A stretch of DNA of 64,000 nt from Lytechinus pictus. Taxonomy: Eukaryota. The translations under genes were made by a program, and so were the position numbers. The notes beneath the pieces were generated by a model. The model made no database searches, was not told where the DNA came from, and worked only from the letters and a program-made list of their open reading frames with translations. The DNA lies in the NCBI RefSeq assembly GCF_037042905.1, contig NC_087250.1:7008001-7072000 (forward strand). Reading direction: 5' to 3'. Every line of letters starts with the position of its first letter. Within the stretch, counting starts at the first letter, position 1. This document shows positions 9,401-63,520 of this stretch, in pieces.

Positions 9401-12400
9401 TGACCAATCAACATCATCGTTGCATGCACATTTTTTTTAAACACTGACCAGGATCCAATCAGAATGGATCTTTTATAATTTGCAATCCATTGCAATTCTT
9501 ACATTGGTGACACAGGGGGTGAGAACTCACCTGCAGCATAGCATCAGGACCGTGTATCCTGACGTCATGTCCCGTCAGTCGAGCCACAATGCACAACTCA
9601 TTGTCCTTCAGATTCAAGATCTGACTTAGTGTAGCAATGTGGTTCTTCAGCTGCTTGCACTGAAGGTTCTCCGGACTGCTGGCCCCGCACTCAAAGGCAA
9701 ACCGCTGCAGACACTCCAGACCTCTTACCGTGTTGGACACCCGAGAATCGGGCTGAATCATCGGGAAGAGGTACTCATTGGTATCCGGGATGCCTACATC
9801 GTGGCGCTTCGCGACCAGGATATCGATCCAGAGCTTGATCTCGTCGGTCAGGAGTACAGGTACGACCTTGCCTTTCTTTCCGATGACCTCGATGCGCGTG
9901 AGCTTCTTGCAAAGTTCCTTCTCGAAGAGACTCATGGCGTCGTAGACGACGTGAACGTCCGGGTGAAGCGGTTGGTGCTTGCGCGCATAGTCACTGAGCT
10001 TCATTTTGGCGATGCTTCCAAGCCGCCGTCGGTTAAAGAGTATGACTTGTGTGAGGGCAATCTCGCTGAGATTGAGCCATGCATCATAGATATCTTCATT
10101 GGTGTGAAGCATTCGCATTTGTTCATGAGCTATCCTCTTGAGGTACGATGTCAGGCAAGCTACATCCTGCGCTAGCGATAACCACTTAGGGTTCCCTCGA
10201 CCTTCGTCTAAAATGCTTCCAAAGTGCGGCAAGGTGGTTTCTTCATGGAACTGGAATTCGAGCATGTCATGGAATTCTGAAGCCCGCTTGTAAGCGAGTG
10301 TGTCCCCAAGGGTCGACGCCTTGGCCTGTAAGATGTATGTGCATTTCTTGAGCGAGTACCCAACATTGGTGTTAAGACTCGGCGAGGAGTTGTTGTATCT
10401 CCGATGGTTAAACCCTGCTAAGCGCCTCGCAGCAATCACAACATTTTGAAACTTGGCAGGGTCAATGAAGGTGTGTAACGTCGCTAGAGGATCTCCACTC
10501 ACAAACCTGAGCTCTAACAACAGTCTACCCAACTCACGGAGTCTTAGCTTTATAGAGACCGCCTCCTCGCGATCATGATTCAACTTCAGACACTCTTTCT
10601 GCGCAATCTCCAATATGAGCGGATCGTAACTGATACAGTGCGACACGTCATCCATTTTGTTGATTCCGAGCACGTCCCCGCGTAACTCCTCCAACGTGCA
10701 CTCCCGGTGCGCGACGGAAAGCACGCCCTCATCAGACGAAACTGATCCTTTTTGTTTGGTCTTTTCGCGAAGTCCATTAAGAGGGCACTCGTGCTTCCAG
10801 AGATCCCGCTTGACATAGTATGCATAGCAGTAGGAGCATGGAATGTATTCGCGAGGGTCTGCTCCCAACGTCGGTCGTTTCTTCACGATCAGACTTCCCT
10901 TGCCTTTCTGTAGGACGTGCATGTTGTGTCTATGATTACCTGCAAATGAAGAGGAAAAAAAAACATAGCTAAAGGATCATCACCTCAAACACATAGGTGT
11001 AACAAAGTCAATTCAAGACTAGACATGATAGATCTGGGGCCCGTTTCATTAAGGACTTGCAACTGTTGTAATGTTGCCACTATGTCAACTACCATGGTAA
11101 CAGGGCTCAGCAGACAATCAGAATCAAGGTTGCCATGGTAGTTGCCATAATGGCAAAGTTACAACAGTTGTAACTCTTTATGAAATGGGTCCCTAAAGTG
11201 GCCTAGTTACAATGGTCACAGTTCGTGAAGGTGCCCTAGCAAAGTGGTCTAAGGCGCCTGACTAGACATTTGCAAGTCCTGGGGGGCGTTTCATGAAAGG
11301 ACTTGTCGGACGTTTTATCCGACAAGTCCCATTTTATCCGACAGTTACCATAGTAACAGTACCTCTCAGCCAATCAACATCAGAGAAAGATGTCAGATCT
11401 GACAACTTGTCGGATGAAAATGTTGATGAAACACTCCCCTGGGCTCGATCCCCGGCCACGGCACCTATGCCCGTGAGCAAGGCATCTAATCAACAATGCT
11501 CTTTTCTCCTAAAATCAAATAAATGGAACTGATACACGCATTCTTGATGATTGCTTTTAAAAAATTCAAAATCAATAACATTACAATGGCCATAAAATAA
11601 ACATTTTGTCTATATTATATTACCCATATCAGACATCTGAGCTGGCCATTTATCAAAACGTGTTGCCCTAGATTTTAAGAATATCGGAAGGAAATCGGAA
11701 TAGGCATATTATTTGTATTTTGCTTGGTACCTACGCGCATACCGACTATTTCCCATCAAACTCACCGAGATTTCTTAACTTTGCCAGCTTGGCATCCTTG
11801 AGAATGGGATCTTTCTCATGCACAAAGTCAATGACTGCCGCCTCTGTGTAGTGGAGTTTGACCAGATGGCGCGGGATCTTGGAGACGGATTTCTCACAGT
11901 ACAGGCAGAAATATTTCTTGTCAAACTTTCTCCTCCCGTCCTCGTAGTTGTTCGTTGACATGACGATAACGTTCTGAAGATCTGGGATCGGACATGGGGG
12001 CAAAGGAAGAAAGAAGAAATAAAAAACTTGACATTGACGTTTCGGAGCAAGTAATAAATAAATCCTCAAAAATCATTCCTTTAAGTTATCATTCAGTAAC
12101 GAGACACCTCCATATTTCACTACTTGGTCATCTAAAAAAAAAAAATCTATATATTGATGTTGATCCTAAATATCATGCAATGTTTTGCAGTGTAACCAGA
12201 GTCAATTATGCAATCAATCCAAAACAAAGTTCTACTATGATTGCTATGCTTTTTGTCACAGGTACCAAGTTATACTCACTGTTTTTAGATTTAGGAATGA
12301 TGACGGCTTCATGATCGTCGTCCAGAGAATTCTCATCTACCGCCTTCACCGTATTGTTAGCCTGTGCCTAAAAACAAATATTTTACAGATAAATAACAAT

Positions 12401-26554: not shown

Positions 26555-29500
26555 GTATGTTTTAATGACAAATTAAAGCAGCATAGTTGATGAATAGTTC
26601 ACGTCTGTTAGTGTTATTCCTGACCTTAGCCCCTTAGCCTTAGCCCCACATGCTTGATTTCGTGTCTTGACCAACAAGGTTGTGGAAATTACAGTTCGAC
26701 TAGTCTAGGAAACGCTTGTTCATTGCCACCATCCTGCCTTTTGGGAATCTCCGAATCTACATGTAGATCTATGGTCATGATCTAGAATTGCATCGGTCCA
26801 GGCGGTTGATAGGGCGTACAATCCAATAGAGCTCCCTATTTTCCTCACTTTTTCTCATATTTTCATTTTCTTTTCGCAATTAGGCCTATATGATTTTATT
26901 TGCTCATAGTTTATTTTGCTTTCATTTGGATCCATGAACTTACTCTTTTTGTTGGATATTCACATCACCATTTTCATTCACAAAATACGCGGGAAGCTCA
27001 GTCAGATTCTACACTGTCCCACCTGTGGATATCCATGTCAGCTCTGTTCACATCTAGGCCTACTGCCCCTGCATGGTAACGCCGGTCGCCCAAGCCAAGG
27101 CTAGCAAAGGCCAAAGCATCGGTCAGCATTGACACATACACTGGGCCTTTTTACAAGCTCATTTGCAGTTGGACTTGGAGGCATCATCATACTATGGTCT
27201 TCTCTCTATCCTGAGCTGATGGTATTGTATAGAATTTGCGTAATAATTGTGTTGTTACATCAGTCATCAGTCCTGTACTGTACAGTGCATGCAATTGTGT
27301 CAGTGAGTCAGCTATAATTTCTACTGTTACTACCTGTCTGTCAGTGTCAATGTTTTGACTCTGTTAAATTGTATGTAACTATAAAGTAAGACAGAATTAC
27401 TACTGTGCTGTTAATGTTAGCTGTACCCTACCTGTGATCCTGTGTCTGTATTTGGAGCCCCTTGATCGATGTAGTGACTCTGTTTGTGAAGTAAAAAGCA
27501 TCAATGACCTTTTGTACCCCTGCATGCTACATGTTCTTCCCTGCTTCGTCACCCTGTGCACTGTGATGTATATCTACATGTAATGTTAATGTTATTATTG
27601 TGACACTGTGTGCTACCGGATCAGAGTATTAAATTTTATAAACTGTGCTACATGTATATAGACATCTTCCTATATTATTTATTCTGTGGAGCCCTTCAAT
27701 CCCTTGTTGCCTGCTACATGTCTTTCCGTACATGTCGTCTCCCTGTGAATGTGATGTACATGTGAAGTCCAGTAGTACCTGTTGTGTGATACTGAAACTA
27801 ATAACTGATGAACTGCTAGATCAATGTCATTCAGTATCTCTGTCTTTCGCCCGTCTATGCCAGAATTTTTTTGTGCAGCAGAAGCAAATTTCAGACTGAC
27901 ATAGACTGTGTATTAACTTTTCTTCACTTCAGTACTATAGCTGCTTTTTTGTGTGCAACAGGACATCAGTAACCTGGGAGTTACTACTCACACTACCTCT
28001 CATTTCATTCCTTACAAGCACTAGCCAGTTATTACCTGTCATTCATTTGCCTGAGCTACTTGTAGGTGTGCATCTGTGTATCAATAAACCAGGAAATCTC
28101 GGACCTTTATTTACGTAAGCTATATCCACATACGTACATGTAAAGCAGATGCTTTGAGGTCACCATTGTCAGAGGCTCCGAGATAAACATTCTGTGTGCT
28201 ACTGTATACATCTCGAGTATACTTTTATAAATAATCATGGCTTCACTAACAAGTACTATTTCTGCCTGCTCATCCCCATGTCTGGATTCAACTGTGGGTG
28301 TGAGTGAAGATGTTGCGACTACTCGAAATTACTCTCTCAATGAGACAAAAGCCATCAGGAAAAAGATGGATTCATGTCATAAGGAAACAATATTCCAACT
28401 TAAAGACAATGGAAAACAGTTAGTTGTCACATGTAGCACAGCAATGTATGAAGCTCTTAAACTTTGTATGTTCACTTATTTTAAGGATCTAGAAGGCAGA
28501 AATACACAAATAGCAGTTGAGATAAAAGATATCAAAGACAAGAAAGGCTTTCAAGTGGAGCACACTATTCGCATCACTAATCGGCTTGCTAGAACAGGAA
28601 ACCCTGGTCTGCGCACCAAGTATGTGATCAACCTTTATAATACTTCAAGTCGTATCCTTGCTAATGGAGGTTGCCTTAGTCTATTTCTCAAAGACCATCT
28701 CCCTCATATCCTGAAGGAGATTGCTGATAAGGGCAACCGCTCTATTTCTGAGGAGAACGCACATCTTCATGAACTTCTTCAAAAGGCAGTTGCTTCCTCA
28801 GGACATAGTGAGTCAAAGATTCCACTGAGGGCAATATCGGCTTCTTCGTCAAAAAGTAGGGTGTCCTCCAATAGTGCTGGGATAGATGTTACAAAGACAA
28901 AGGAAAGGAACCCAGATGAGACAAGAGCGTCCACTTTAGATGTTGAAGAGGAATGTCCTTGCTTGGAAGATGACCGTAAGCTTCTCTGTCCGGCCTGCCT
29001 GACACATTCCTGCCTAGATACTATTGAGTGTGAACTCTGTAACTCCTGGTATCATTTCCAATGTTCACATCTCTCTGAAACTGAGTTAGCCAAGCATTCT
29101 GCCAACAAATCATTATCCTATGTCTGTTCAGCTTGCTCTAATCTGGACCAAAATCCTACTCTTGGAAAGGTATCCCGGAGCTCCTCACCTCCTCCTGTTG
29201 TACATGTATGTGACTCTCCAAGTGGGAACTCTGACAATGTCAGCTCTGTTATTAATATAAGTGATTCGGTCTCTAATTCCAAGGAGTCCACTTTTCAAGA
29301 TAGCAGTGCCACTGTGTGTCAGTCACCCAAAGACCCAAAGGTAACAATTATGCAGGTTTTAAGGACTTTGGAAGAAGCTTCTACTCCTGGAACATGTAAG
29401 TCCTGTATTGTTGGACCTTCCTCAACCTTGGGTAGCCTGTCTGAGCATAAGTCCACACAAACAACCTCAAACATAATGGAAAGATCCCCTAGACTACATG

Positions 29501-32500
29501 TAGCTGATGCGTTTACGCAGGTACATGTATCTTCAAATTTAAAGGATAGGTGTGTACTGGTGGATGCATCCACTCAGTCTTCTTCTCCTCCCCCTGCCTG
29601 TAGAGTGTGCCCTAAACTGGAAGGTATTGCCAACAACCGGCAACAAGAAATTAAGGTGATTCGAACTGTCAATGAGAACTTGCAGAAAGATAATGAAGCT
29701 TTGTTGAGCTCTGTTAAGTTTTTAAAGAAGGAGCTAGCTCAGGCAGAGGATAATCTAACCACAGTTAGGCGTCAGCTGAGTCAGCTCAGTGAAGGTAATC
29801 GGGCTCTTATCCATAGTAATCAGCAACTGAGACTTACCTCAGAATCTCTTCAATGTCGTTGTGACCATCTGACTGCTTTGTGCCTTAACAATGGCCTTGA
29901 GGTACTTGGTGAAGAACAGACTACAGCAGATCCGTATGTAAAGAAGACTTACGACAAATACTCAGTTCCCACTACCACAAGTAATAGGTTTGGAGCCCTC
30001 TGGGATGAAGCTTCTGATCTCTCTGGTGATGACTGTAATGCGGAGCCGACTCAGACGAGGAGCCAAAGAACTGGTGCAAAACGAAGGCGTAGAAAATCCC
30101 ATGAAGGGGGTTACCCCTCTCCGCCACAACCAACAAGGAAGTGTACTACACCAAAGAACCAAAGAACTCGGTTGAATACTCCAAGACCCACAGGTTCAGG
30201 AGCCCATTTAAGAGTTACACCTCCATCTAGACCTGGTCATCACAACCCCCAGAACAACAGAAACAGGACCTCGCATTCGTTAAGACCAGAAATATCAAGA
30301 TCACAACCCTCATTCGCATCACAGCAGCCCTCACCTCCAACCCAGACCAACAGGAACAGGACGTCACATACAGTACAGGAAAAAAGACCAGAGGTGCCAA
30401 GACCGCAACCCTCATTGGCACCAGAGCAGCCCTCACCTTCGACTATTTCACAGGAACACTACCCCCTCTACTCAACCGTGTTGAACAGGAACAAGGTATA
30501 CTCTAATCACTCCATACCCACACAAAGGAGAGATAGCAGTGTAATTGGCAACAAGTTTTGTGCAGATGATAACTCAATGTCTCCTCCATCGAACCAGGTT
30601 TTTCGGCACGGTCGGAACACTCAAATAGCTGCACCGATAATTCTCCGAGCAGCGTCAGCTGCCCTAAATCTTGTCCTGTCAGACCCAACTATTCCACAAG
30701 TCAACAGCCTCCTTATACAGAGTCACCTACAGGTCATTCTACATCATGCCCTTCTTCTGAATCAAGAATCTCGCCCCACCAGTCTCACAACACCCCCCCA
30801 GCAGCCATCAACACAATCCCCTCCACGTATAAGAATTTTGTCGTTCAACATGAGAGGTTTTGAACCAAATAAGTTCTACCTTTTTAAACTATTAGAATCA
30901 GTTGATATTGTAGCAGTACAGGAGCATTGGCTGCAGAGCTTCTCAGAACACAAACTTACTGAGCTTAAAGACACCCATATTGTTTATGCCAAATCTTTTG
31001 ATAACGGATTGTCCAGCCCATCACTCACTCGTCGTGGAAAAGGTGGTGTAGCCCTTTTCCTTCATCGCCGTTTTCAAGCAGCCTGTGCCATTGTAGATAC
31101 CACATCCAACAGATTGCTGTGTGCACATATTTGTGATAAGGACTGTTCTGGGAGTTTACTATTTGTGAATGTATATATGCCCTCTGGAAGTAGTGCAGCT
31201 GACCATGCTGAATATGCTGATATCCTGACAGAAATTTCGTCCCTAATTGGTCAGTACCCTAGTGCTAAAGTAATACTTATGGGAGACTTTAATGCTGATA
31301 TCACAGGACTGCCTTCTTCTTGGAACAGGAAAGCCCAACTATTGCAGCATTATCTCACAGAGAATAGTTTGGTTAGTATGATGACGATCTATCAAAATTC
31401 CAGTGATTACACCTACATGAGTGATGACGGATCAAAGAAATCCTACATTGACCACATCATTACTCACTCTGCTAATGTAGGCTCATTCTTCGAGTACATG
31501 GTGGTTCCTGAAGACCCTCTCAATACCTCAGATCACCTGCCAATACAAGCTTCATTCATGTCCCACTTGCACCCATGTAAGGAGGCGAGACAGGAGATTA
31601 ACATGACAAACCACAAGTATAACCATATTCGTATTAAGTGGAACCAGGCCTCTTCGCAAGAGATTCAGGAGGTATACTCAACAGCTATTGACGACATCTG
31701 TGACCAGCTTTTGTCCAGCCTACCTGATGAAGCCTCCTTGACAGGAAAACATGCTGAGTACATGCTTAATACATTATCTCAAGCGATGTTGAATGTGAGC
31801 ATGAGAAATCTGCCATATGCCTCTGGTAAGAAGCGTAAGCGTCAGAAACCTGAATGGAGCACATCAGTTGACTCAACATACAAGGCCATGAAACTCTCTT
31901 GGAAGAAGTGGAAGCTAGGTGGCAAAAATAGATCACAAGCAAACCCTTTGTGGATAAGATATAGATCGGACAAGGCAGCTTTTCGTAAGCAGCTCAGGAA
32001 ACAAAGGCATAACCTAGAGAGCAGCCGGCTTCTACAAATTGAGAGAGCCAAGAAAGGGGACGACAGGCTGTTTTATAAGTTAATCAAGGAAAGAAGATCT
32101 CGTGCAGATGCCTCTCCTGTGGACACACTCATAGTCAATGGTAAGAGCTACACAGGAAAGGCTACCATTCAAGGTTTTGAAGAGTACTTCAAGATGCTAT
32201 CCATGCCCAACCCTGGTAATAATTATCAATCAACCATTACTGATACAGTGGAGAAACTGGCTAATGTAATCAGTACATGTACTCCGAACCAAAGACCTTT
32301 CACAAGAACGGACTTAGATAAAGCCATAGGACAGCTTAAGAAGAACAAGGCTGCTGGAGCTGACCAGATATCGGCTGAGCATGTGCTCTTTGGTGGTGAA
32401 AAGGCAAGAAATCTTCTCTTAGTCATTATGAACACCTTTGTTGCTCACAGCTTCATTCCAGATGCCTTTAAATATGGAATAATTCTACCACTACACAAGG

Positions 32501-35500
32501 GGAATGGTAAACCTCTCACTGATCCCTCTTGTTACAGAGGAATAACCCTGTCATCTACTTTCTGCAAAGTATTGGAGTTGCTTATAAAACCCAAACTTCT
32601 AGAACAGCTTCATCAAAGAGGGATCCCTGATGAGCTACAGAGTGGTTTCCAAGAAGAGCACTCCTGTTCCTTAACAGCAGCCTCTCTCAACCTCATCATC
32701 GAAGCTAATACTAAAAATGGTAGAACAACGTATGCATCATTCCTCGACGCTGCCAAGGCATTTGACACAGTGTGGCACGATGGTCTTCTTTACAAGCTCT
32801 ATCATGATGGGGTGACAGGTTATCTGTGGAACATCCTTTTTCAGCTGTATCAAGGTCTTCTTGGAGCTGTTGCATGGAAGGACAGACAGAGCAACTGGTT
32901 TCCTATCCGACAAGGTGTACGTCAAGGAGGAATCCTCTCTCCCCTTCTTTATTTGATCTACATCGATGGACTCATACAGAAGCTGAGGAAGAGTGGCATA
33001 GGCTGTAAAGTACTTTCCAGATACACAGGAACTCTTGTGCTTGCCGATGACGTAGTACTCCTCGCCAACCTCCCTGAAGATCTACAGCGTATGCTTGATA
33101 TTGTCTTGGAGTACACCAAACAGTGGCACTACACCATCAATCCCTCCAAAAGTGCTGTAGTGATTTTCAACCTAGGACGTAACTCTGCAGATTTCCAATG
33201 GCACTTTGGTTCAGACATCATTCCTGTTCAGGCCTGCCATCCTCACCTTGGTGTCTTGCGCTCCTCTAATAAACTGAATCGCACCCATGAGATCTTTCAA
33301 AAGGGTAATAAGGCCCTGTACAGCTTGACAGGTACTGGTGCTTACCGGAGTGGTTTGTCCCCTGTCATTGTTTCCTCACTGTGGAAAACATTCTGTACGC
33401 CCAGAATGTTGTACGGAACTGAGGCTCTTAACCTACCGGATAGAGATAAGAGGGCCTTGGATGTGATGCAGAGCCACCTTTTCAAAAAGCTACTTGGTCT
33501 TCCAAGGACAACTGCACAGGAGGCTGTTCCTTTGCTTACAGGGATTCCCCTTCTATCTGACTCAATTAATCTCCTACATCTGCGTCTTTTGGGAAAGATT
33601 ATCTCTCTACCTCAGGATAGAATTGAGCACAGGATCTTTTCGAGTGTTGTCTGCCAGGAGCCTACTATACCTACCATCAAAGTCCTCAAGGTTCTTCTAG
33701 AGAAGTACAATCTTCCATCTCTACCGGATCTCCTGCAGCAAGGTTGCTCGTATCTGACATGGAAGAAGAGAGTAACAAATGCAGTGGAAAGTAAAGTCCT
33801 TGCATCCCTCTCCGAAGAAACCTCCCTTAAGTCGTCCCTTCTTCTGTTCCATGATATTGACTTGGTGCTTCCCTATCATGTATTCCCGTCCGTCATTCAC
33901 CCTGCACATCTCCGGATAGCCATCAATATGAAAGCTCAGCTTCTTACCAGCACCTATCTCACCCAAAGTCGACTGTGCAAGATCTCCAGACTAGTTTCCG
34001 ACCCAAGTTGTCCTGCTTGCCATGCACCTGTGGAAACTGTCTTTCACTTTGTTAGTGAATGCATAGCCTATACCCATCTTAGAAATAATCTTCTGAATCA
34101 TTTTCAAGAGGATGCCATTAAAGTGCTCTCAAGCTTTTCAAATACAGACTCCTATCTTCATGTTGCAAGAACCAGACTTATCCTCCTTGGTGTCATTGGC
34201 AATGTCTCGTATCAGTTTCCTGACTTTCATCCTGTTACTCTTCAATTTGTGTTTGATATACATTTCTCAAGACAGCGCCTTGTTGATCAAGCGGCTGCAA
34301 ACAGTGACTAATAGCTCATTATTTTTACCATGCTGTACTGCAACTAAAGGCTTGCAGTTCTCCGGTGAACGGAGGAATTCAACACAGAAGAAGAAGAAGA
34401 AGATAGATCTATGCCAAGTGCGGCAGACAGCACCAGCATGACCAGGGTCCAGGCACGGCCAGATTTCACAAAATGAGATATGGATTAGGCCTATGGGACA
34501 ATCGACAGAGCCTCAGACTGAGGCACTCCTAGTACCAATGAGGTCCAACATTACATGTATGGACCTCATAGGCGACATCAGTAGTATTTTTGGTTAGAAA
34601 TCTCTGAGAACAGGATATTTATATATTATATCACAAGTGCAAGCTATATTCCTTTCTCTTATTTAAATTATAATTTTATAGTGTAAATGCATCGTTAGCA
34701 ACAACAAAAAATGAAAGAAATGAAGGGGAACTTACATTTTCACGGCTTTTTCCTGATTTTCTGGGCAGCTGCTCTTCTCTTCTGACTCGCGATCGAAGCT
34801 GATATGAAGATCACGTGATTCGCGTTCTCGTCAGCTGATCGGTTGGTTATTCTTTTCGTCAGACGTTAATAATATATATTTTATAATGCTAGCATTCATC
34901 GCTAATTTAGGTGAAAGAGATTGAAGTTAAACAGCGCCAGGTCGGAATCATAATTATTTTGGAAGAGTGTATTTATACACTCGATCTCATACCTGACGTA
35001 GACGGCGCTATTCAACAAATGCACAATCTTCAATATAAAAAATAAAACAGAAAGAACGCCTTGAACACAGGCCAAAATGCCTAACGATTTCTCCGCGGCA
35101 TTAACAACTATCGTAAAGGGCGCTCCATTTATCAATAAAGATGGATGCTAAGCTGTCTATGGCGACAAAATTTGCCGCAAATATTTACGAAGAATTGTGA
35201 GAAATGGTCTGAAAATGCAACAAAAGAACCGGTGAGTACCGATTAAACATTATCAATTTATTTAATAGAACATATTAAATGACTACAATGTAACAATTTC
35301 TAGATAATATTGCTTAGTTCTAAGCTAGGGCGGCCCAAATGCGCGTGAGTGGAGTCCCAGTTTATTAGCACGGGTAAGTATTGGGGTGTCGCCTAGAGTG
35401 GACTGAGGCTTAGATTTTTTAGAGATAATTTTAGTATACAAATAATGCATGCAGCCGAGTGCGTTAGTGGAAATGCAGAGCACGCGAGGTTTCTTTACTT

Positions 35501-41500: not shown

Positions 41501-43102
41501 ATGATAACTGAAGTAGTTTTCTTCGTTATGAAAGCAGCTGGAAACGAAACAGTACACATATGAAATATACAATGTAAACAGAAGTTTTGAGTTTTTGGCT
41601 CCCCATGATTCTAGCAGAGAGTTAGACCGTGGTCTAAGTTAAACCAAACTTCAGATATGGGCCCCTGTGTATAAACATTATAATGATTTCAGATAATTAT
41701 ATACTTAATCACACATCGCAGACGGTCTCATCAGGCACGCAATGTCTGCTCAAAAGGGTTCACAGTGTGTTCATAGTGTGTTCAAAGTGTGTTCATAGTG
41801 TGTTCATAGTGTGTTCAAAGTGTGTTCAAAGTGTGTTCAAAGTGTGTTCATAGTGTGTTCATAGTGTGTTCATAGTGTGTTCATAGTGTGTTCAAAGTGT
41901 GTTCAAAGTGTGTTCAAAGTGTGTTCATAGTGTGTTCATAGTATGTTCATAGTGTGTTCAAAGTGTGTTCATAGTGTGTTCATAGTGTGTTCATAGTGTG
42001 TTCATAGTGTGTTCATAGTGTGTTCAAAGTGTGTTCAAAGTGTGTTCATAGTGTGTTCATAGTGTGTTCAAAGTGTGTTCATAGTGTGTTCACATAGCCT
42101 TCTGGCACTGAGTGGTTCCTGGGGAAAGACTGTCAGAAATCTGCAACAATGTCCATTTTGGCATCACTTGGGTACCTTTTACCATTTTAGTATCTTTTCA
42201 TCATTTGAGAATCATTCTCTTTTTCCCTTCTATCCTCACCTCACCAGGCAAGGATCGCATCTCACGAACTGGGTAGTCCTTGTACAAAATCTGTGGAAAT
42301 ATTTGAATTCGGTAGTCAACAGGTTAACACATTGCCTACTGCAACAGGGTGAACTCTGTACAAAGTCTACGGGAATTAGATAATTCAAGAGTTAACAAGT
42401 CAACCTATTACCATCAGGAACTTGGTGGCTCTTGTTCAAAGCCTATGGGTTGTAGAGAATTCATTGTCAAAAGGTTGCCTTCTGGAACTGAGTAGTTCAT
42501 GTGCAAAGACTGTCAGAAATATGCAACATTGTGAATTTTAGAATCATTTGGGTACCTTGTTCAGTACCATTTTAGTATATCTTCGTCATCGTTCGAGAAT
42601 CATTCTCTCTTTCCCTTCTCTCCTCCCTCCAAACAACTTTTTATCTCACCAGGCACGGATCGCATCTCACGATATCGGAGTCATCGGAGTATTCCTCATC
42701 CTCGCCAGCCGCGTCGGAGAAGACCTCGGCAAGAAATACCGCCTCCACTTCCTCTTCCCCTACGGCAAGAACCTCATCTCCATCTTCTGCATCATCAACT
42801 CCGTCCAGCTCTACCGGACGCCCGAGGAACGCCGTGCCTTCCTCTCGACGCTCCCCCACGGCGAGACGGCCATGGTCCTCCTGGGCGTGGCCCTGCTCAT
42901 GGGCGGGTTCCTCTTCTCCTCCGAGTTCCAGACTAAACGCATCAGTGCATTTTTAGCCGTCGCTCTGTTGTTTTTTATCCTGACCATAGAAGGTAACCTT
43001 CATTATTGGCACATGAAAGCGAGATTAGAATACTGGATGCAAATGAATATGGTTCTGAATAGTGTCACTGTTCTGTGTAGCTTGATCTTCATGGCAACAT
43101 GA
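26415..43102 (+). CDS. TMEM101: Transmembrane protein 101 orthologue, 3 exons, 255 aa
   Basis: Exons 26415-26554, 40639-40816, 42653-43102 (768 nt, phases 2 and 0). Motifs RFPF...MLCSER, MMSFG.QR, ERRAFL..LPHGE, IEGNLHYWH..ARLEYWMQM align by eye with human TMEM101. Confidence 0.9.
26774..34403 (+). mobile_element. Apparently full-length non-LTR retrotransposon (LINE; RTE-X or L2-group-like, clade uncertain) in TMEM101 intron 1
   Basis: Intact 2024-aa ORF, short 3' UTR, (AAG)n tail ending at 34403. Candidate 10-bp TSD TAGATCTATG at 26764-26773 and 34404-34413; the 5' end rests on this TSD. Confidence 0.85.
28237..34311 (+). CDS. LINE polyprotein: ORF1-like part (PHD finger, coiled coil) fused to AP endonuclease, reverse transcriptase and C-terminal CCHC finger
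   Basis: PHD C4HC3 at about 28987-29136. APE motifs SFNMRG, AVQEHW, MGDFNA, YIDHI, SDHLPI at about 30830-31550. RT motifs YRGITL, LDAAKAFD, GVRQGGILSP, LADD. CPAC...ETVFHFVSEC at about 34008-34063. Confidence 0.95.
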   Translation: MASLTSTISACSSPCLDSTVGVSEDVATTRNYSLNETKAIRKKMDSCHKETIFQLKDNGKQLVVTCSTAMYEALKLCMFTYFKDLEGRNTQIAVEIKDIKDKKGFQVEHTIRITNRLARTGNPGLRTKYVINLYNTSSRILANGGCLSLFLKDHLPHILKEIADKGNRSISEENAHLHELLQKAVASSGHSESKIPLRAISASSSKSRVSSNSAGIDVTKTKERNPDETRASTLDVEEECPCLEDDRKLLCPACLTHSCLDTIECELCNSWYHFQCSHLSETELAKHSANKSLSYVCSACSNLDQNPTLGKVSRSSSPPPVVHVCDSPSGNSDNVSSVINISDSVSNSKESTFQDSSATVCQSPKDPKVTIMQVLRTLEEASTPGTCKSCIVGPSSTLGSLSEHKSTQTTSNIMERSPRLHVADAFTQVHVSSNLKDRCVLVDASTQSSSPPPACRVCPKLEGIANNRQQEIKVIRTVNENLQKDNEALLSSVKFLKKELAQAEDNLTTVRRQLSQLSEGNRALIHSNQQLRLTSESLQCRCDHLTALCLNNGLEVLGEEQTTADPYVKKTYDKYSVPTTTSNRFGALWDEASDLSGDDCNAEPTQTRSQRTGAKRRRRKSHEGGYPSPPQPTRKCTTPKNQRTRLNTPRPTGSGAHLRVTPPSRPGHHNPQNNRNRTSHSLRPEISRSQPSFASQQPSPPTQTNRNRTSHTVQEKRPEVPRPQPSLAPEQPSPSTISQEHYPLYSTVLNRNKVYSNHSIPTQRRDSSVIGNKFCADDNSMSPPSNQVFRHGRNTQIAAPIILRAASAALNLVLSDPTIPQVNSLLIQSHLQVILHHALLLNQESRPTSLTTPPQQPSTQSPPRIRILSFNMRGFEPNKFYLFKLLESVDIVAVQEHWLQSFSEHKLTELKDTHIVYAKSFDNGLSSPSLTRRGKGGVALFLHRRFQAACAIVDTTSNRLLCAHICDKDCSGSLLFVNVYMPSGSSAADHAEYADILTEISSLIGQYPSAKVILMGDFNADITGLPSSWNRKAQLLQHYLTENSLVSMMTIYQNSSDYTYMSDDGSKKSYIDHIITHSANVGSFFEYMVVPEDPLNTSDHLPIQASFMSHLHPCKEARQEINMTNHKYNHIRIKWNQASSQEIQEVYSTAIDDICDQLLSSLPDEASLTGKHAEYMLNTLSQAMLNVSMRNLPYASGKKRKRQKPEWSTSVDSTYKAMKLSWKKWKLGGKNRSQANPLWIRYRSDKAAFRKQLRKQRHNLESSRLLQIERAKKGDDRLFYKLIKERRSRADASPVDTLIVNGKSYTGKATIQGFEEYFKMLSMPNPGNNYQSTITDTVEKLANVISTCTPNQRPFTRTDLDKAIGQLKKNKAAGADQISAEHVLFGGEKARNLLLVIMNTFVAHSFIPDAFKYGIILPLHKGNGKPLTDPSCYRGITLSSTFCKVLELLIKPKLLEQLHQRGIPDELQSGFQEEHSCSLTAASLNLIIEANTKNGRTTYASFLDAAKAFDTVWHDGLLYKLYHDGVTGYLWNILFQLYQGLLGAVAWKDRQSNWFPIRQGVRQGGILSPLLYLIYIDGLIQKLRKSGIGCKVLSRYTGTLVLADDVVLLANLPEDLQRMLDIVLEYTKQWHYTINPSKSAVVIFNLGRNSADFQWHFGSDIIPVQACHPHLGVLRSSNKLNRTHEIFQKGNKALYSLTGTGAYRSGLSPVIVSSLWKTFCTPRMLYGTEALNLPDRDKRALDVMQSHLFKKLLGLPRTTAQEAVPLLTGIPLLSDSINLLHLRLLGKIISLPQDRIEHRIFSSVVCQEPTIPTIKVLKVLLEKYNLPSLPDLLQQGCSYLTWKKRVTNAVESKVLASLSEETSLKSSLLLFHDIDLVLPYHVFPSVIHPAHLRIAINMKAQLLTSTYLTQSRLCKISRLVSDPSCPACHAPVETVFHFVSECIAYTHLRNNLLNHFQEDAIKVLSSFSNTDSYLHVARTRLILLGVIGNVSYQFPDFHPVTLQFVFDIHFSRQRLVDQAAANSD
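34522..37417. repeat. Tandem array of a 1009-bp unit, about 2.9 copies, near-identical
   Basis: Units start ggcactcctagtacc at 34522, 35531, 36540; only about 5 substitutions seen by eye. Confidence 0.97.
37845..38590. repeat. Polypurine (GA-rich) low-complexity tract
   Basis: Base composition. Confidence 0.9.
40639..40816 (+). CDS. TMEM101: TMEM101 exon 2
   Basis: ttatctag| acceptor, GTG|gtaaga donor; frame of ORF 40598..40891. Confidence 0.88.
41764..42092. repeat. 11-bp minisatellite AGTGTGTTCA(T/A), about 30 copies
   Basis: Read directly. Confidence 0.95.
42653..43102 (+). CDS. TMEM101: TMEM101 exon 3
   Basis: Pyrimidine tract and ctcaccag| acceptor; frame of ORF 42548..43102. Confidence 0.9.
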   Translation, partial: ARIASHDIGVIGVFLILASRVGEDLGKKYRLHFLFPYGKNLISIFCIINSVQLYRTPEERRAFLSTLPHGETAMVLLGVALLMGGFLFSSEFQTKRISAFLAVALLFFILTIEGNLHYWHMKARLEYWMQMNMVLNSVTVLCSLIFMAT

Positions 43103-55221: not shown

Positions 55222-55445
55222 GGTTGAAGCTTGGTGGCAGTGATTCCTTACAGCACACACATATTTCAAGGGTCTAATTTCTACCAGATACCCAGGGATA
55301 CTGTACCTCACCTGGGTCAAGTGCAGCACAATAGGGATAAATTTATTGCTGAAGGAACCATTGAACTACGCCATGGCTGGGATTTGAACCCGCAACCCTC
55401 TGTTTCAAACTGAAGACTAATCCACTTGGCCAGAATGCTCCACAT
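55222..55445 (-). mobile_element. tRNA-derived SINE remnant
   Basis: Reverse B-box gggatttgaacccgc and SINE-like body. Confidence 0.5.
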
Positions 55446-55959
55446 CAATATTACATTTTTATCATTATTAAGTTTGTCATAAGTTCAATATAAAGCAATA
55501 ATGCTCAGTACAAAATGTCTGGGTTATCTTTGGCATACAAGACATTCCAGTTTGTAAAAATCATGTATATGTTTGTGTACATCATCTAAGAATAGAACAG
55601 ACACCTGAAACCATTTCTTTGTCTAGATTTGGACGGTATAGCCTCAATGTACTTCAACAAGAAACATCAAAGCTCTTCTTTGTCTCAGAGTTCATTCAAT
55701 ATCTACAGTTCACATTCAATATAAATGTTTTATACATATCTTATCAAATAAGAAAGGTTTGGGCATTGCATTTAAAAATAAATAAAAAAAATATAAGTAT
55801 TTTTCAGTCCCTCTGACAGCTTAGTACACTCGGTACAAATTATGGATCTATTTTCTTCATATTGCCTGTTCATTAATCCATACATGTACAAAGTCTTTTT
55901 GATCATGCATGCTTGAACTACTCAAGTCATTAAAAAAACTGAGCAATGAAAAGAAGTTC

Positions 55960-56735
55960 TCTCCTTTTTCGATAGGTACGATCGTATATCTGTATGTCTA
56001 TTGACATTCCTCCTCCTTCTCGAGTCTGGATAGGTTACTTCAAAACTACCAGAATATAGTGTACTCTGTACAAATACTTGACCTAATCCATTTTTCAAAC
56101 TGCCTTAGCAATTAAATGAGTTCACTCCACTTTCGATAGTATTGATCATAGTTCCGTATATCTATCAATACTTCTCTTTCGTTTTGAGTCTGCATAACTT
56201 CAAACCTACCTGCGTCCAGTTTACTTGGTATCAATGCTTGATCTACTGAAGTCATATAAAACACTGAGGAATGAAAACAGATCTCTCCACTTTCGATAGG
56301 TTTGATCATAATTCTGTATGTCTGTCAATACTTCTTCTTCTTTGTCTCGAGTCTAGACAGGTTATTCCCAACCTACCAACGTTAAATGTACTTGATACAA
56401 ATCCTGTACTTGATCTAATCCATGTATAAAGCTGCTTGTGCATTAAGATGAGTTCTTTCAGCATTTGTTAGTTTTGATCATAATTCTATATGTCTATCGA
56501 TACTCCTTCTTCTTGAGTCAGGGTAAGTCACCTCAAACCTTCCACTGTACAGCGTGCTTGATACAAATCCTGTACTTGATCTTATCAATGTATAAAACTG
56601 CTTGTGCATTAGTTAATTCAGCATTTATTAGCTTTGATCATAATTCTGTATGTCTATCAATACTCCTCCTTCTTCTCCTTCGTCTTGAGTCAGGGTAAGT
56701 CACTTCAAACCTTCCAGCGTCCAGCGTACTTGGTA
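55960..56735 (-). repeat. About 165-bp degenerate tandem copies of the end of the TSP-like last exon in the 3' UTR
   Basis: tttgatcataattct.tatgtct.tc.atact...gagtc...caaacct units at about 56634, 56473, 56301, 56142, 55978. Confidence 0.85.
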
Positions 56736-56804
56736 TAAACGTTGCGTCTCCCATAATCATTCCATGATTGTCGTACAGTGAATCATCAACCAGCATGGTG
56801 GATC
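56638..56804 (-). CDS. TSP-like last exon
   Basis: ttgtag| acceptor; STMLVDDSLYDNHG...DSRRRRRRRSIDRHTEL then TGA. Confidence 0.85.
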
Positions 56805-59800
56805 CTACAAAACAATGAAAAGGTGAAATTTCATGATATAACCTGCAGATTTGCTATGAAATCATCTGAGGAAGTTGGGATGTACTCATGTGATGATTAA
56901 CAACAACGAAATATAATGTTTAGTGTTTCATCATTTTCTTTATTTAAAATCACTTTAGTTAATTTAACACTAAGCCAACTTAGATCACACTTTTAAGGAG
57001 TGCCGTTTGCCACCTAGCTATGTCATCACCATTATCACCACCATCATTGTCATCACCAACATCATTGTCATCACCAACATCATCCTTATCATCTTCACCA
57101 ACATCATCATCATAATCATTATCATCACCACCATCTCTATCTTTCTCATTACAACCATTATCAGCAACATCATAGTCATGCCATCATCATTATCATCATC
57201 ATCCTAACCATAGTCATCCCCATCACCACCACCAACATTAACATCTTCATCATTACCACCACCCCCACCTTCGACATCATCATCACAATCATCATCATCA
57301 CCACCACCACAATCATCGATCATCATCATTACCACCATCATCATCATCATTACCACCACCGACATCACCACCCCCGACTCATACTACTCACCATCACTCT
57401 CAGTGTCCATAGTATAATGACCATCCAGTAGTTTCTTGTGTTTCTGCCAGTCCAGACCAGCTAGCTGCATGTGCTCCTCAATCTCAGAGTCTAATAGAGC
57501 TAGCCCCCATATTCTAACCTCATCCATAGTTCCTTCAAACAGATTGCTGCTATTATCAGCTCCAAGATACAGATCCACATCAGAGTTCTAGACAACAACA
57601 TAAAGATATCAAGGAAAAGGTGTTTGAAAATTTAGGATATCATGAAATTTGATCTGCCAATAATCTCTCCTGACAATAAAGGACAGCGATACATGTACAA
57701 GCATTTTATTAGGATTAGGTTAATCTGTTTTCTCTCCAAAAATTGACAACAAGAATTCATTCCCAGATTACATGGATTGAACAGATCGTCGCTTCATTTC
57801 ATAACTTTTATTTTTCAGTTCATTACTCTTTTCTTTCAAGTCTTGCGCAACTCTCGAGACTAAATTTGTGACGTTTACTCATGCTGTTCTGAAAATATGC
57901 AATATTTTTTTAAGTGCTTTCCAAATGTTGTTTTCTAGCCAAAAAATCATATATCGATAATAGACGGTCCTTACTTTTAATGATTATTTTACTTATTCTG
58001 TTTTCCATTTCATTTATTCCATGTTTTTATGATTGAAATATTTCACCCTTGAAGCATTGATCTCAATACCAATGAAGACAGTTTATAAGATTGGATGTTT
58101 ATAAGATTGGATTACAGTTTACAGATTACTAAATTTGTGAAGTTTACTCATGCTGTTCTGAAAATACGCAATATTTTGTAAGTGCTTTCCAAATGTTGTT
58201 TTCTGGCAAAAAAAAAAATATATCTATAACAGACAGTCCTTTCTTTTAATGATTAAAAGCAACTTATTCCATTTTTTATGATTGAAATATTTCACCCTTG
58301 ACGCATTGGTTTATAAGATTGGATGTTCATTACATACCCACGTCAGACCAGGTACGCTAGTAGTATCATCCTCTAATGTTCCATTCACAAATAAGGACAA
58401 GATGCAATCTACATGAATCAATAGAAAAGCAGCTCTAGTCATTAGGGTCTAAATTTTATACAGTGAATATGCAATCAAGTCAATTCAAAATGCAATCAAA
58501 GTAAGTATAAGAAGATGCAATCAAATCAATTCCAAGAAAATGCAATCAATTCAATGAATTGAGAATGCAATCAAATCAATTCATTCAAAAGTAGTATCAA
58601 ATCAATTCATTGAAAGTGATATCATATCAATTCCTTGAAGTTGCATTAATTAATTGAAAATGAAATGAAATGAATATATTTTAGATGCAATTAAATCAAT
58701 TAATTGAAAATTGTATCAAATCAATTATTGAAAATTAACCCATCACTAAAAATGCAATCAAATTAATTCATTGAAAATGCAACACAATCAATTAATTGAA
58801 CATGCAATCAAATCAATTCCATGGAAATACAATCAAAACTAATTGACAATCAAATCCACTGGAAATACATACACATATTAACCTGACATAAACTTTCCTG
58901 AAAACAAAACATTGTTTACTGAACATACTTCTGCACAACTTGATAGGATAATGAATGCCTTTTTTATTCAATATATCATTGTGGGGGTGTTGTTGCCCTC
59001 TAGAATAAACATTATGGCCAGTATTCTGAAGTCAGGTTTAACTTAGACCATGGTCTAACTCTGTACTAAAATTATGGAAAGCCAAAAGTGTCAAAATTTT
59101 TATTAATTTGTATGTTTCTTATACATGTATTTACTGTGCTCTTTCCTGATTCTTCAATTGTGAAGACAATCATATATTTATACTTCCTAGACAATTATTA
59201 ATGATTTGAGAGCCAAATGGGCTTAAATATGATATCTCTACTGTTACTGATTTATGTAACAATTGGCTATCCATACTTAAACTACAACTTTAAACCTGAG
59301 TTTAAGTTAAACCCGACTTCAGAATACAGGCCTATACCTTGTGCATCTAGTCTGAGAGCTACATGGTTCCAGGCATCTTCTACAAGTGGACTGCTTGTAG
59401 CATTCACATAAAAGCTCCCATATTTCCCATAGACATAGCTGCAACAATAGAAAAGAATCCAAAATAAAACAAGAAATCGATAAAAGAATAAATGGTAGTC
59501 ATCATCATTCTTTAAACCCTTGTCATCCTGTATTTCTTTTCCCCTCTATCATTCCTCTTATCATATAATTATCAAAACCAGGAACCTAAATTACAATGAA
59601 CTGTGATTATTCTAATCATTCACAACTATGGAAAGCCAGCAATAAATTGTATAGTCAGGGCTTCACACCAACCTGCTCCTGTCGGACCAGTAGATATACC
59701 CAGTTTTTCAATGAGAATTAGAAAGACTATCATTCGCTGCCCAAAACACTGGTAGTAGGCCGGGAACCAAGATCCACCATCTCTAGTTATTACCAAGCTT

Positions 59801-62800
59801 CAAATGTAAACCTCTCATTATCATATTACCATTCTTCTATGACGAGAGACTATTATCAGCTGCCCAAAACAGCAGTAGCTTAGGACGAGGATACTCCGTC
59901 TCTAGGTAACACTATACTTCTAATGTAAATCTTATAAACTACCCATCTTCTATGATGAGAGAAAGACTATCATCAGCTGCCCCAAACCCGGTAGCATGGA
60001 CCAAAGAGACCCTATCTCAAAGTAACACCAAACTTCTAATGTAAATCTAATCATCCTACCCATCTTCTATGATAAGAGAAAGACTATCATCAGCCGCTCC
60101 AAACACTGGTAGCGTGGAACTTAGAGATCCTGTCTCTAGGTAACACCAAGCTTCTAATGTAAAGCTCTCATCGATATCAAGCGACTGGATACCGGGTAGT
60201 ATCACATAATCATCGTCCCCATCGAATTGGAGAGCTTGGTTTAATCTGATAAAGTAAGAAGAAAAATAAAATAATTATATTGCATAACAGTTTGTTTGAA
60301 CTTTTATGGTATAAATGTCGGAGTTGGTTTCTAATCCAGACCCTTTGACGGGTTCAAATTGAAATGAATAGAGAAAGACACGGCAATTTCATACCATCAG
60401 TGCATTCAGTGATGCGATAACACATTACCTACTATATTTAATCGTTTCAAAAGTAGGTTTCGGTTTAAGAACTTAGGTTTTTAAACTCAAAGAACTCTAA
60501 GTTGAAAGACTATTCCTAAACGAATGCATATTCAAACTTGTAAATATATACCTTGTAACTTGTAAATGTCTTGACAAACTGCATAACTGAGATACCTCTA
60601 CACAAAAACATGATTATCAAATGACCTCAACTGGTATAATACACGTGTATGGTTTAGGCCACAAGGGGACTGATGGCTTATCATCCTTTCCAAGGGACAC
60701 TGATGTGCTAATTTTCAAATAGCACTTGATGCATAAAGACGAATCGTTCTACCATTGAATGAATGTACCTCTATACTAACTAGACATTTTAGAACACACA
60801 TATGACCAAAACTGATTTAAGAGTTGAAATTCTTACCTATCAGCACATTCATATTTCATATGGGAGAAGGTGACATCGGGCTGGTCATAAACAAAGACAC
60901 CAAGACGACCTCCGAGAAAGGTCGTGTCGTAAAGGTCACCAGAATCCGTCAAAGTTACATCTCCAGATTTGATTGTGACCCTGCAGAGATGGAGGAAAAA
61001 AATTATAGCTGTCACCAGGCTTGAAAGAAAAACTAGAATTAATGATTGTATTTGCCATTTTAGGCATGTCATCACTATCATCCCCATCAGGGCTATTCTA
61101 CTCTTCCTCCTCCTCAACATCATCATTATTATCAGTTTCACCCTCATCCACCTCTTTCTCATCATCACTTTCAATATCATGATCATCACCATCATCATCA
61201 TTAATATTACAATCATTATCATTATGAACCTCATCCCTCTCCTCCTCCTCATTGTAATCACCATCAATATCATCATCATCATCACCACAATCACCATCAC
61301 CATCAACCATCATCACTATCATAATCACCATCATCATCATGGCTATCATCTTTATTATTATCACCATCATAATTATCACCCCACCATCAGCATTATCATT
61401 ATTGTCATTATCATAATCATCATCATCATCACCACCATCATCATCATCATCACCATCGACACGACAACCACCACTACTATCACCAAAATCACAGTCATTC
61501 TTTCCATAACTTTCACCATCACAATCATCATCATTATTATTACCACCATCATAGTCACCATTATCTTCCTCCTCCTCCTCATCATCATCGTCATCATCAC
61601 AACCATCACCATCATTATCATCTTCACCATCATCACCACCTCCATATTTTCATCATCATCACCTATGGCACCATGACCACCACCACTCTCACCAAAATCA
61701 GTCATTCTTTCCATAACTTTCACCACTACAATCGTCATCATCATCACCATCACTATCATCACCATCATCACTATAATTACTATCATCATCATCATCACCA
61801 TTTTCATTGTTATTATTATCATCATCATTATCACCATCACCATCGCCATGATCGTCACCATCATCACTATTATCGCAAAAATTATCAACATTACCATCAT
61901 CACCACAACCACCAACACTATCACCAAATCATCATTGTTTCCATAACTTTCACCATCACAATAATAATCATCATCACCACTACCATGACCATTATCAACA
62001 TCATCATCACCATTGTCATTATCATCATCATCCTCCTCATTATCACCAATATCATCATCATCATCAAAACCATCAATAACACCATCTTTCTCTTCCCCCA
62101 TCACCATCACAGTGCATACCTCATAATCCCAATAGATGGTCTATATGTTAGATCATACCTCATAATCCCAATAGAAGGCCTATACGTAAGTCTCCATAGA
62201 TATGCTGTCCTGTGCTGCCACCCCTGCATCAGGGGGTCATGCCACATCAGTTCTACTTCATTTGATGTGGTGTACGAGTGCCACAGAGCGTTGGCTAACG
62301 TGGTCCCTGGGCCTGTTGTAGAGTGCACCTTCTGCATATCAATGAACACATTTCACAATAGGTGGTTTCAGACCGCCTCGAAGTTCGTCAGTTCCAGGTA
62401 TTCTCCGATCGGGAAATTTACCCCGATCAGAAAATACCAGGTATTTTGGTAATGTGAAAGCAAACTACGCGTAATTTCCCCGAAAGAAAATACCCGCTAA
62501 ATAGTAGGTACTTGGCGAAATTACGAGAACTTTCGCGGGGATTTTTCCAAGGTCGTAGGTATTTTGGCGATGTGAAAGCAAATTACGGGAACTTTTAGCC
62601 CAGCGTGTCGTTGTGTGCGGCGCCGTGGGTGGCTGCTGGGATAGGGATTTTGAATCTCGCGCCTTGCCTGCTTATCAGACCATACTGCGCATGCTCGTAA
62701 CTTCAGGAACTTATCCCGAAGGGTCTGTTTCAGGGCGGTGTGAATGCAGGAATAATTAATGGGTATTTTTTCAGCCTAAAAAAGTTCTCGTAATTTAACG

Positions 62801-63520
62801 GGGATTCTTGTGATCGAGGCGGTTTGAAACCACCTAATGAGTGATTTCAAGCTCAGTGAAATATGAACCAGTAATCTTGCATATCACCAAGTTGCTGCAA
62901 GCCCTCAACCATTCATATTTGGTTTTTATTTATTTATTGTATTTATTCATTCAGTATAAAACAAAAATACAGGATAGAAAGGTCCAAGGACCAAAATGAA
63001 CACGTTTACAGAAATTGCAACACAATAGTAAACAAAATGAACAGTAACAACCAATATAATTACATCCATACAAAAATATTCAAGGTTTATAATGATAATC
63101 ATATCATTTCAAATACTAATTCCATTTATGTGATTTTCTTCATAATTCTATTTCAGGTAGATATATGTTTGTTGCATAACAATACTATAAAAATATAGGA
63201 AATTGCAATCAGTTCCTTCAGACGATTTCAATTCCTACATTACCATCAGATTAAATAAAAGTGTGAACACGACTTGCCTTGATCTGTAATCCCTTTAATC
63301 CAGCATATTGGGTATCCTTGTTCAAGTTGGTGTGTTTCCACATCGCTACATAGAACTTCCTATTGCTCTGATAGCCATAGACGAAGCCCATGTAGTTGCC
63401 CCCGTCGTCACCATTCACGTACATGGTGCAGCGGAAGTCTACCGGTCCTAAGGTATCATAGCCGATCAACATCACAGGGGAAGAGATGAAGGAGGAGTTG
63501 AAGAGGTGAACTTCTTTACC
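56638..63520 (-). CDS. Thrombospondin-superfamily gene, 3' part (TSP C-terminal L-lectin domain plus LamG/concanavalin-like domain); 5' end is outside the window
   Basis: Exons 63520-63278, 62331-62159, 60980-60837, 60245-60060, 59438-59338, 58408-58338, 57587-57392, 56804-56638 give 426 aa in frame. TSP_C motifs GFVYGYQSNRKFYVAMWK, VHSTTGPG..LANALWH, WHDP...GW, GGRLGVF. LamG motifs ALQFDGDDDYV, FTLEAW, WNHVA, LFVNG, FEGTMDEVRIW. Confidence 0.9.
57020..57375. repeat. (CAT/CAC)n degenerate microsatellite
   Basis: Read directly. Confidence 0.9.
57392..57587 (-). CDS. TSP-like exon (LamG)
   Basis: gtctag| acceptor, G|GTGAGT donor; LYLG...FEGTMDEVRIW. Confidence 0.85.
58338..58408 (-). CDS. TSP-like exon (LamG)
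   Basis: atgtag| acceptor, TGG|GTATGT donor; LSLFVNG. Confidence 0.8.
58465..58865. repeat. Degenerate aatgcaatcaaatcaatt repeat of about 25 bp
   Basis: Read directly. Confidence 0.75.
59338..59438 (-). CDS. TSP-like exon (LamG)
   Basis: ttgcag| acceptor, G|GTATAG donor; DAWNHVAL. Confidence 0.82.
59705..60170 (-). repeat. About 117-bp tandem copies of the 3' half of exon 60245-60060
   Basis: gactatcatcagc..c.c.aaacac.ggtagc...gtaacacca.acttctaatgtaaa occurs four times. Confidence 0.88.
60060..60245 (-). CDS. TSP-like exon (start of LamG)
   Basis: ttatcag| acceptor, GG|GTAGGA donor; LNQALQFDGDDDYV...FTLEAW. Confidence 0.82.
60837..60980 (-). CDS. TSP-like exon (end of TSP_C)
   Basis: ctgcag| acceptor, AG|GTAAGA donor; DSGDLYDTTFLGGRLGVF. 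Confidence 0.88.
61065..62110. repeat. (CAT/CAC/TAT)n degenerate microsatellite making up most of an intron
   Basis: Read directly. Confidence 0.92.
62159..62331 (-). CDS. TSP-like exon (TSP_C)
   Basis: atgcag| acceptor, AG|GTATGA donor; frame of ORF 62107..62349. Confidence 0.88.
62360..62835. mobile_element. TIR MITE (Harbinger-like) 26 nt from a splice acceptor
   Basis: AGGTGGTTTCAGACCGCCTCGA / TCGAGGCGGTTTGAAACCACCT; AAT on both flanks. Confidence 0.8.
63278..63520 (-). CDS. TSP-like exon (TSP_C), with GC donor
   Basis: cttcag| acceptor, AAG|GCAAGT donor; frame of ORF 63251..63475. Confidence 0.88.

Follow-up and report, generated by a model that had tools for sequence, protein, structure and literature searches.

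The gene examined here lies on the minus strand of a 64,000-nucleotide stretch of the Lytechinus pictus genome (positions 7,008,001 to 7,072,000 of contig NC_087250.1, assembly GCF_037042905.1; hereafter the window) and encodes a mega-thrombospondin (mega-TSP), the C-terminus of which carries a run of arginines followed by the terminal tetrapeptide HTEL. To judge from its sequence, this tail probably serves as a removable endoplasmic reticulum (ER)-retrieval tag, which would retain the protein and then, after escape, render its release one-way. The minus strand from 56697 to 56638 reads YPDSRRRRRRRSIDRHTEL and then a stop codon, the YPD beginning at 56697, slightly beyond the span 56638..56690 given by an initial annotation made from the DNA sequence alone. 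That annotation had described a poly-Arg furin-type run followed by HTEL at the C-terminus, which is borne out on the minus strand, where the last of the eight exons of an open frame encodes both elements; the tail is genuine and is present in RNA. The codons of the Arg run (56685–56665) are a mixture of AGA, CGA and AGG. Calculated from the composition of the mega-TSP, such a tail would arise by chance about 2e-7 times per C-terminus, a figure flattered by the Arg-poor composition. Both motifs occur in 2 of the 2,054 stop-ended frames of the window, namely the tail itself and one of its copies in the 3′ untranslated region (UTR). Read-through of the stop was considered and rejected: the frame past the TGA consists of UTR-repeat sequence and is closed after 34 codons, and the orthologues end at the motif.

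The eight exons splice into 426 open codons with a single stop, by way of AG acceptors and GT donors except for one GC donor. The latter, at 63276–63277 after a TSP_C exon, defines a GC-AG intron, and the spliced frame agrees with the named model. The spliced product is identical at 426/426 positions to the L. pictus model P0256 and at 425/426 to P0219, as compared with 424/426 for a second L. pictus model and 416–417/426 for two L. variegatus models; all of the L. pictus and L. variegatus models share the tail. According to the initial annotation, a different last exon in transcripts would have spoken against its reading, but stranded RNA covers the tail. Four runs were placed on the window between 53300 and 57015. 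Contig 8 of run X1 (4,153 nt; a guessed RNA run) aligns to 56805–56209 from record position 3559, with 3,558 letters more upstream, from which it reaches the acceptor and continues past the stop codon, and the intron bin has an X1 depth of 0. The RNA placement ended short of the upstream donor, and it is the acceptor side of the splice junction that this contig shows. The raw stranded RNA runs X20 and X21, of each of which about 6% was read, gave depths of 5.65 and 10.5 over 56648–56771 in one orientation, as for minus-strand RNA, while the last exon was left uncovered by run X5 (organism B). A near-identical paralogue could be an alternative source of the reads on this exon. The sole last-exon variant among those listed is synonymous (56746), and a one-codon change in the Arg run may be compatible with X1 contig 8, which shows three unplaced gaps and four mismatches, one of them unplaced.

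The protein had been called thrombospondin-like, which is correct as to the family and can be made more precise: the gene encodes a mega-TSP, in which a second ConA-like domain comes after the thrombospondin C-terminal region, the two being recognized by Pfam TSP_C and Laminin_G_3 both on the window exons and on P0219. Because the gene runs off the end of the window, the N-terminal features were taken from this near-identical model (2,911 amino acids). Its 16 Pfam hits comprise leucine-rich repeats, a weak cadherin match, discoidin, EGF, type 3 repeats, TSP_C and the second ConA/LamG domain; with its predicted signal peptide, N-terminal leucine-rich repeats, cadherin and discoidin domains and more than 2,700 residues, it has the same architecture as the mega-TSP family described by Shoemark et al. 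(2019; PMC6526912). These authors referred to the terminus as ‘a terminal, nonconserved sequence’, whereas the same terminus consists here of two conserved motifs; the main text of that article contains no match for KDEL, furin, cleavage or endoplasmic. Canonical thrombospondins have the EGF–type 3–TSP_C region in common with mega-TSPs but end after TSP_C, and the one example among the sequences retrieved, the Tupaia TSP2 model P0233, has neither motif.

In a simple hydropathy scan, P0219 peaks at residue 9 (1.87), the next peaks being at most 1.45; with a predicted signal peptide and no membrane segment, the protein is predicted to be soluble and lumenal. PDZ, nuclear and cytosolic Arg-based signals were accordingly set aside as functions of the tail, being incompatible with a lumenal protein. 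An AlphaFold model of the last 243 residues of P0219 has a mean predicted local distance difference test (pLDDT) score of 90.3, with the domain mostly above 89; the score drops to 75, 60 and 59 over residues 221–243 of the modelled piece. In this model the tail lacks stable structure, and both the Arg run and HTEL lie beyond the predicted fold. The best match of the model in the PDB is 4DQA, the template used in the mega-TSP family paper (PMC6526912), and the fold also matches that of pentraxins. R-x-K/R-R occurs only once in P0219 and in NvMT (P0201), each of about 2,800–2,900 residues, and in both cases at the tail; P0009 and P0212 have one further such site elsewhere in the protein.

The initial annotation had proposed that orthologue C-termini be inspected for the same two elements, and these proved to be widely conserved. 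A first homologue search, limited to 143–2,000 amino acids, yielded five proteins, one of them with a complete end, and a profile search brought up many multi-LamG proteins that lack TSP_C, the best 150 hits containing 15 new TSP-type proteins. Of the 115 proteins classified, 18, both Saccoglossus models among them, are too short to complete the second ConA domain and were excluded; a further 12 fragments or non-members received no class. In the 97 complete ends that were left, R-x-K/R-R and a terminal [H/K/R]xEL always occur together or not at all: 65 contain the pair, and both motifs are absent from 32. The both-motif set covers 23 named genera from four phyla plus lancelets: cnidarians (16/16, from eight genera including an octocoral and a scyphozoan), echinoderms (30/31; 11 genera), hemichordates (2/2), lancelets (6/6), the brachiopod Lingula (1/1) and unnamed proteins (10/10). 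Neither motif stands at the end of the proteins from molluscs (29/29; 11 genera) and Owenia (2/2), or of one Diadema model, which contains the motif but extends beyond it. Hydra, Ciona, sponge, ctenophore, placozoan, nemertean and phoronid proteins were absent from the named homologue matches. As a control, none of 158 non-TSP multi-LamG proteins ends in EL and two have R-x-K/R-R near the end, although this mostly prokaryotic-looking set makes a weak comparison.

The 42 distinct tails available before the last additions all have Leu at position −1 and Glu at −2, with His (40), Arg (1) or Lys (1) at −4; position −3 is occupied by ten different residues, but never by proline. The basic run is 4–9 residues long and is followed by Ser (30), Asp (7), Asn (3), His (1) or Gly (1), and then by Val, Leu, Ile or Ala in 40 of the 42, a residue pattern typical of furin substrates. 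By contrast, the spacer is anywhere from 2 to 13 residues long and free in sequence, which suggests that what is selected is the pair of motifs together with the free C-terminus. In stony corals (P0010, P0193–P0197) the spacer is more conserved than in other groups, with W-A-x-R or W-x-R before HxEL. Sea urchins, sea stars and corals each have several mega-TSP paralogues; four of those from sea urchins (P0096, P0137, P0189 and P0242) are fast evolving, with long branches, and keep the basic run and HTEL or HDEL. One model from Diadema antillarum (P0254) has 244 cysteine-rich residues past an intact tail and is probably a fused gene prediction.

The two motifs have also been lost together. Without exception, the 31 complete proteins from molluscs and Owenia stop level with the aligned YPxx, the putative cut position, or a few residues short of it, several of them keeping a remnant R, K, KR or RR; this is the end that a convertase, with or without carboxypeptidase trimming, would leave. 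Since Lingula keeps the tail, its absence from molluscs and Owenia reflects secondary loss. A quick IQ-TREE phylogeny of 43 homologues (tail columns left out), which holds NvMT and the urchin orthologues but neither a canonical-TSP outgroup nor the window protein itself, gives three changes of the tail label, against a mean of about 12 after shuffling; the starred branches force only one change, so that a single loss fits too.

The residues of the tail match the reported KDEL-receptor code. The receptor is reported to tolerate every residue except proline at −3 and to favour Glu at −2, and AHTEL, AHEEL and AREEL equalled AKDEL on human KDEL receptor 1 (ERD21) (PMC2140024), in agreement with the statement of the initial annotation that HTEL is a working variant; the example that it gave, HTEL in carboxylesterases, could not be confirmed and was not found in the available part of PMC8276033. 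His at −4 confers higher affinity, with dissociation constants of 0.26 µM for HDEL and 1.9 µM for KDEL (PMC8248988). HTEL conforms to [K/H/R]-x(not P)-E-L at a free C-terminus, but falls outside the old Prosite pattern. As regards furin, for which P1′ volume and flank accessibility are reported to matter (PMC3281273), the tail combines an R-x-K/R-R core, a small P1′ residue and, according to the AlphaFold model, accessible flanks, which makes it a putative furin-type substrate.

Taken together, these features are best explained by the following putative course of events. A newly made mega-TSP (about 2,900 amino acids, with a signal peptide and no membrane anchor) would end in HxEL and be returned to the ER by KDEL receptors. 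Retrieval from the intermediate compartment or cis-Golgi would slow export and build up an intracellular pool of this very large, disulfide- and calcium-dependent protein. Some molecules might get past retrieval by leakage, because the receptors are saturated, or in response to a stimulus, for instance a loss of ER calcium, which is reported to release KDEL-type cargo (PMC8276033). Having escaped, mega-TSP would be exposed to a convertase of the furin type, either on the cell surface or in the late Golgi, and a cut after the Arg run would drop the short HxEL peptide and make export one-way; the mature end would lie at or just after YPxx and coincide with the end encoded directly by molluscs and Owenia. 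In an engineered system, proteolytic removal of KDEL is reported to release lumenal cargo 20-fold (bioRxiv 10.1101/2021.10.19.464966), which argues for such a mechanism. KDEL retrieval takes place at the intermediate compartment and cis-Golgi, furin is a marker of the trans-Golgi network (TGN) (PMC6182704), and addition of KDEL to peroxidasin led to less secretion and less convertase cleavage (PMC8533639); cleavage is therefore likelier to follow escape than to trigger it. The ‘cleavable ER-retrieval tag’ of the initial annotation is partly supported: the tail is conserved and transcribed, but the idea that cleavage triggers secretion meets an ordering problem, furin acting late and retrieval early.

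Several points weigh against the proposed retrieval tag. Efficient retrieval should keep mega-TSP from furin, which leaves the route from retrieval to cleavage unexplained; the localisation, the cleaved end and receptor binding are all predicted from sequence, and the receptor rules used derive from vertebrate receptors. Furthermore, a Ciona TSP-DD protein has been reported as secreted from cells (cited in PMC6526912), and the tail is dispensable in molluscs and Owenia, which do without it. The 65 both-motif proteins are not independent, being isoforms, paralogues or related by shared ancestry, and it is the deep taxonomic spread rather than the row count that carries weight. Finally, gain of a stop inside the Arg run is easy (CGA to TGA), so that the shared end point would be weak evidence; the absence of HxEL-only or Arg-only ends is the stronger point.

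The tail might be explained in other ways. The strict version of the initial annotation, in which an early or signal-activated convertase cuts the tag during cycling between the ER and cis-Golgi and thereby starts secretion, draws on the same sequence evidence, and very long Arg runs (4–9 residues) would favour cutting under poor conditions. Moreover, the engineered lumER switch works in this way, and removal of KDEL from plant SH-EP in or just after the ER has been proposed to permit its exit (PMC2174809). We nevertheless consider this unlikely, since furin is an enzyme of the TGN and endosomes (PMC6182704), ER-retained peroxidasin is less cleaved (PMC8533639) and no early convertase was identified in this analysis. 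Tailed mega-TSP could instead act mainly inside the ER or early Golgi, where it might, for instance, scaffold or chaperone the assembly of matrix; HxEL would then be an ordinary retention signal, and the Arg run would do no more than mark escaped molecules for tag removal, or would be a rarely cut linker, flexible or able to bind glycans. HxEL does belong to the strongest signal class (PMC8248988), and the mega-TSP data reported in the publications consulted are at the transcript level or from knock-downs only. However, HxEL without a basic run occurs in 0 of 97 proteins, the residues after the run resemble a protease subsite, and secretion would be the default for orthologues that have these domains but no tail (P0062), all of which makes a mainly intracellular role rather improbable.

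A function of the tail in the extracellular space, or of the peptide once released, is likewise given only a small probability; here the basic run would bind sulfated glycans or expose a C-terminal Arg ligand, and the HxEL peptide would signal via surface or Golgi KDEL receptors or drive re-uptake to the ER. Basic runs could indeed bind polyanions, and in reelin and PDGF-B the C-terminus is basic and cut by convertases; yet the released peptide would be conserved in neither length nor sequence beyond the receptor motif, and the joint loss of both motifs is explained no better than by a retrieval tag. As for coincidence or an annotation artefact (a purine-rich repeat plus a chance tetrapeptide, or a wrong last exon), the repeat-like Arg codons, the variable run length, the tandem copying of the exon end in the UTR and the Diadema model P0254 that runs past the motif might be cited in its favour. 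This explanation is scarcely credible in the face of conservation from cnidarians to lancelets, RNA cover and identity to the named model, and is already largely refuted.

Among known systems, the closest parallels include the plant KDEL-tailed cysteine endopeptidases (SH-EP and ricinosome CysEP), non-resident proteins whose KDEL causes delay or concentration in the ER and is later removed (PMC2174809). These are proteins unrelated to mega-TSP, vacuolar proteases carried in Golgi-bypassing vesicles and described there as plant-only, and unlike for the mega-TSP tail, no furin-type site is reported for them in that source. No papain-family protease domain is present among the 16 Pfam hits of P0219, and the likeness would be one of mechanism only. 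The lumER switch (bioRxiv 10.1101/2021.10.19.464966) has the same layout, signal peptide–cargo–protease site–KDEL, and releases its cargo upon cleavage; it is, however, synthetic and relies on an ER-placed viral protease, whereas the mega-TSP site would suit an endogenous late-Golgi convertase. ‘Exodosis’ proteins, which have KDEL-type tails and undergo stimulus-dependent secretion on ER calcium loss, illustrate a possible route past retrieval, but tail loss is not described for them in PMC8276033, in contrast with what is proposed for mega-TSP. The mega-TSP mechanism would resemble those of the plant endopeptidases and lumER without belonging to either. The relevant mega-TSP papers found were PMC6526912 and PMC3575656 only. 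The open-licence literature searched yielded no earlier description of the mega-TSP tail, nor of any animal matrix protein with a naturally occurring KDEL tail that furin could remove; furin sites combined with KDEL-like tails were found there in toxins and in viral and engineered cases. This deeply conserved two-part signal on a known family is apparently unreported, although a report elsewhere is possible.

It is tempting to speculate, and we do so tentatively, that mega-TSPs carry an endogenous convertase-removable KDEL-receptor tag predating the cnidarian–bilaterian split, which would provide for an ER stock and for irreversible release on demand, for instance in regeneration, where Hydra mega-TSP is required. 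KDEL-type tags are generally taken to mark ER residents, and matrix proteins to exit constitutively. That cnidarians, deuterostomes and a brachiopod share a tag supplied with a site for its removal would point to a control of matrix secretion undescribed for mega-TSPs. Animals would thereby possess a natural counterpart of the engineered KDEL-cleavage secretion switch, and other invertebrate matrix proteins may use it as well. Molluscs would offer a natural tail-less comparison, C-terminal tags on expression constructs would hide the signal, and the form of the tail suggests a proteome-wide search for ends made of a basic run, a short spacer and HxEL. The parts of the gene in the window are listed in Table 1.

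Table 1. Exons of the mega-TSP gene, elements of the tail and repeats in the 3′ UTR (window coordinates)
Feature	Position	Strand	Basis
Exon, TSP_C (first ConA-like) domain, then GC donor	63278..63520	-	Pfam TSP_C E 4.9e-20; splice frame
Exon, TSP_C	62159..62331	-	tblastn; splice frame
Exon, TSP_C end	60837..60980	-	tblastn; splice frame
Exon, start of second ConA/LamG-like domain	60060..60245	-	Splice frame; region named for NvMT in PMC6526912
Exon, second ConA/LamG-like domain	59338..59438	-	Splice frame
Exon, second ConA/LamG-like domain	58338..58408	-	Splice frame; model identity
Exon, second ConA/LamG-like domain	57392..57587	-	Pfam Laminin_G_3 E 2.2e-5, below curated cut-off; splice frame
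Last coding exon: domain end, tail and stop	56638..56804	-	RNA cover; same in tails of P0219, P0256-P0259
Seven-Arg run, overlapping R-x-K/R-R candidate proprotein-convertase sites, then Ser-Ile	56665..56685	-	Sequence; outside confident fold
Spacer SIDR	56653..56664	-	Differs between orthologues (2-13 residues)
HTEL, KDEL-type retrieval motif at extreme C-terminus	56641..56652	-	Sequence; conservation; PMC2140024
TGA stop	56638..56640	-	Sequence
3′ UTR: four decayed tandem copies of exon end and first UTR bases	55915..56585	-	Spacing 160-172 nt; RNA cover

On the minus strand, three of the eight exons are followed directly by tandem copies of their own 3′ end (55915–56585, 59697–60048 and 62120–62158). 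The end of the last exon is present in four copies of about 165 nt in the 3′ UTR, two of which still have a readable Arg run plus HxEL-stop; as alternative C-termini these copies were judged unlikely on account of frameshifts and stops and the lack of a full exon. Exon 60245–60060 is followed by copies of about 117 nt (59697–60048), and the 39-nt copy downstream of exon 62331–62159 (62120–62158) rebuilds an in-frame GT donor. A short high-copy repeat resembling a short interspersed nuclear element lies at 55284–55430, with very high and strand-biased RNA read depth. Elsewhere in the window, an unbroken frame of 2,026 codons (28231–34311, plus strand) with endonuclease and reverse-transcriptase domains represents a retrotransposon of the long interspersed nuclear element type; a 505-codon open frame (9459–10976, minus strand) without Pfam match at E 0.001 looks, by eye, transposon-derived; and positions 42542–43102 (plus strand) contain a coding stretch of the TMEM101 family (Pfam E 2e-28).
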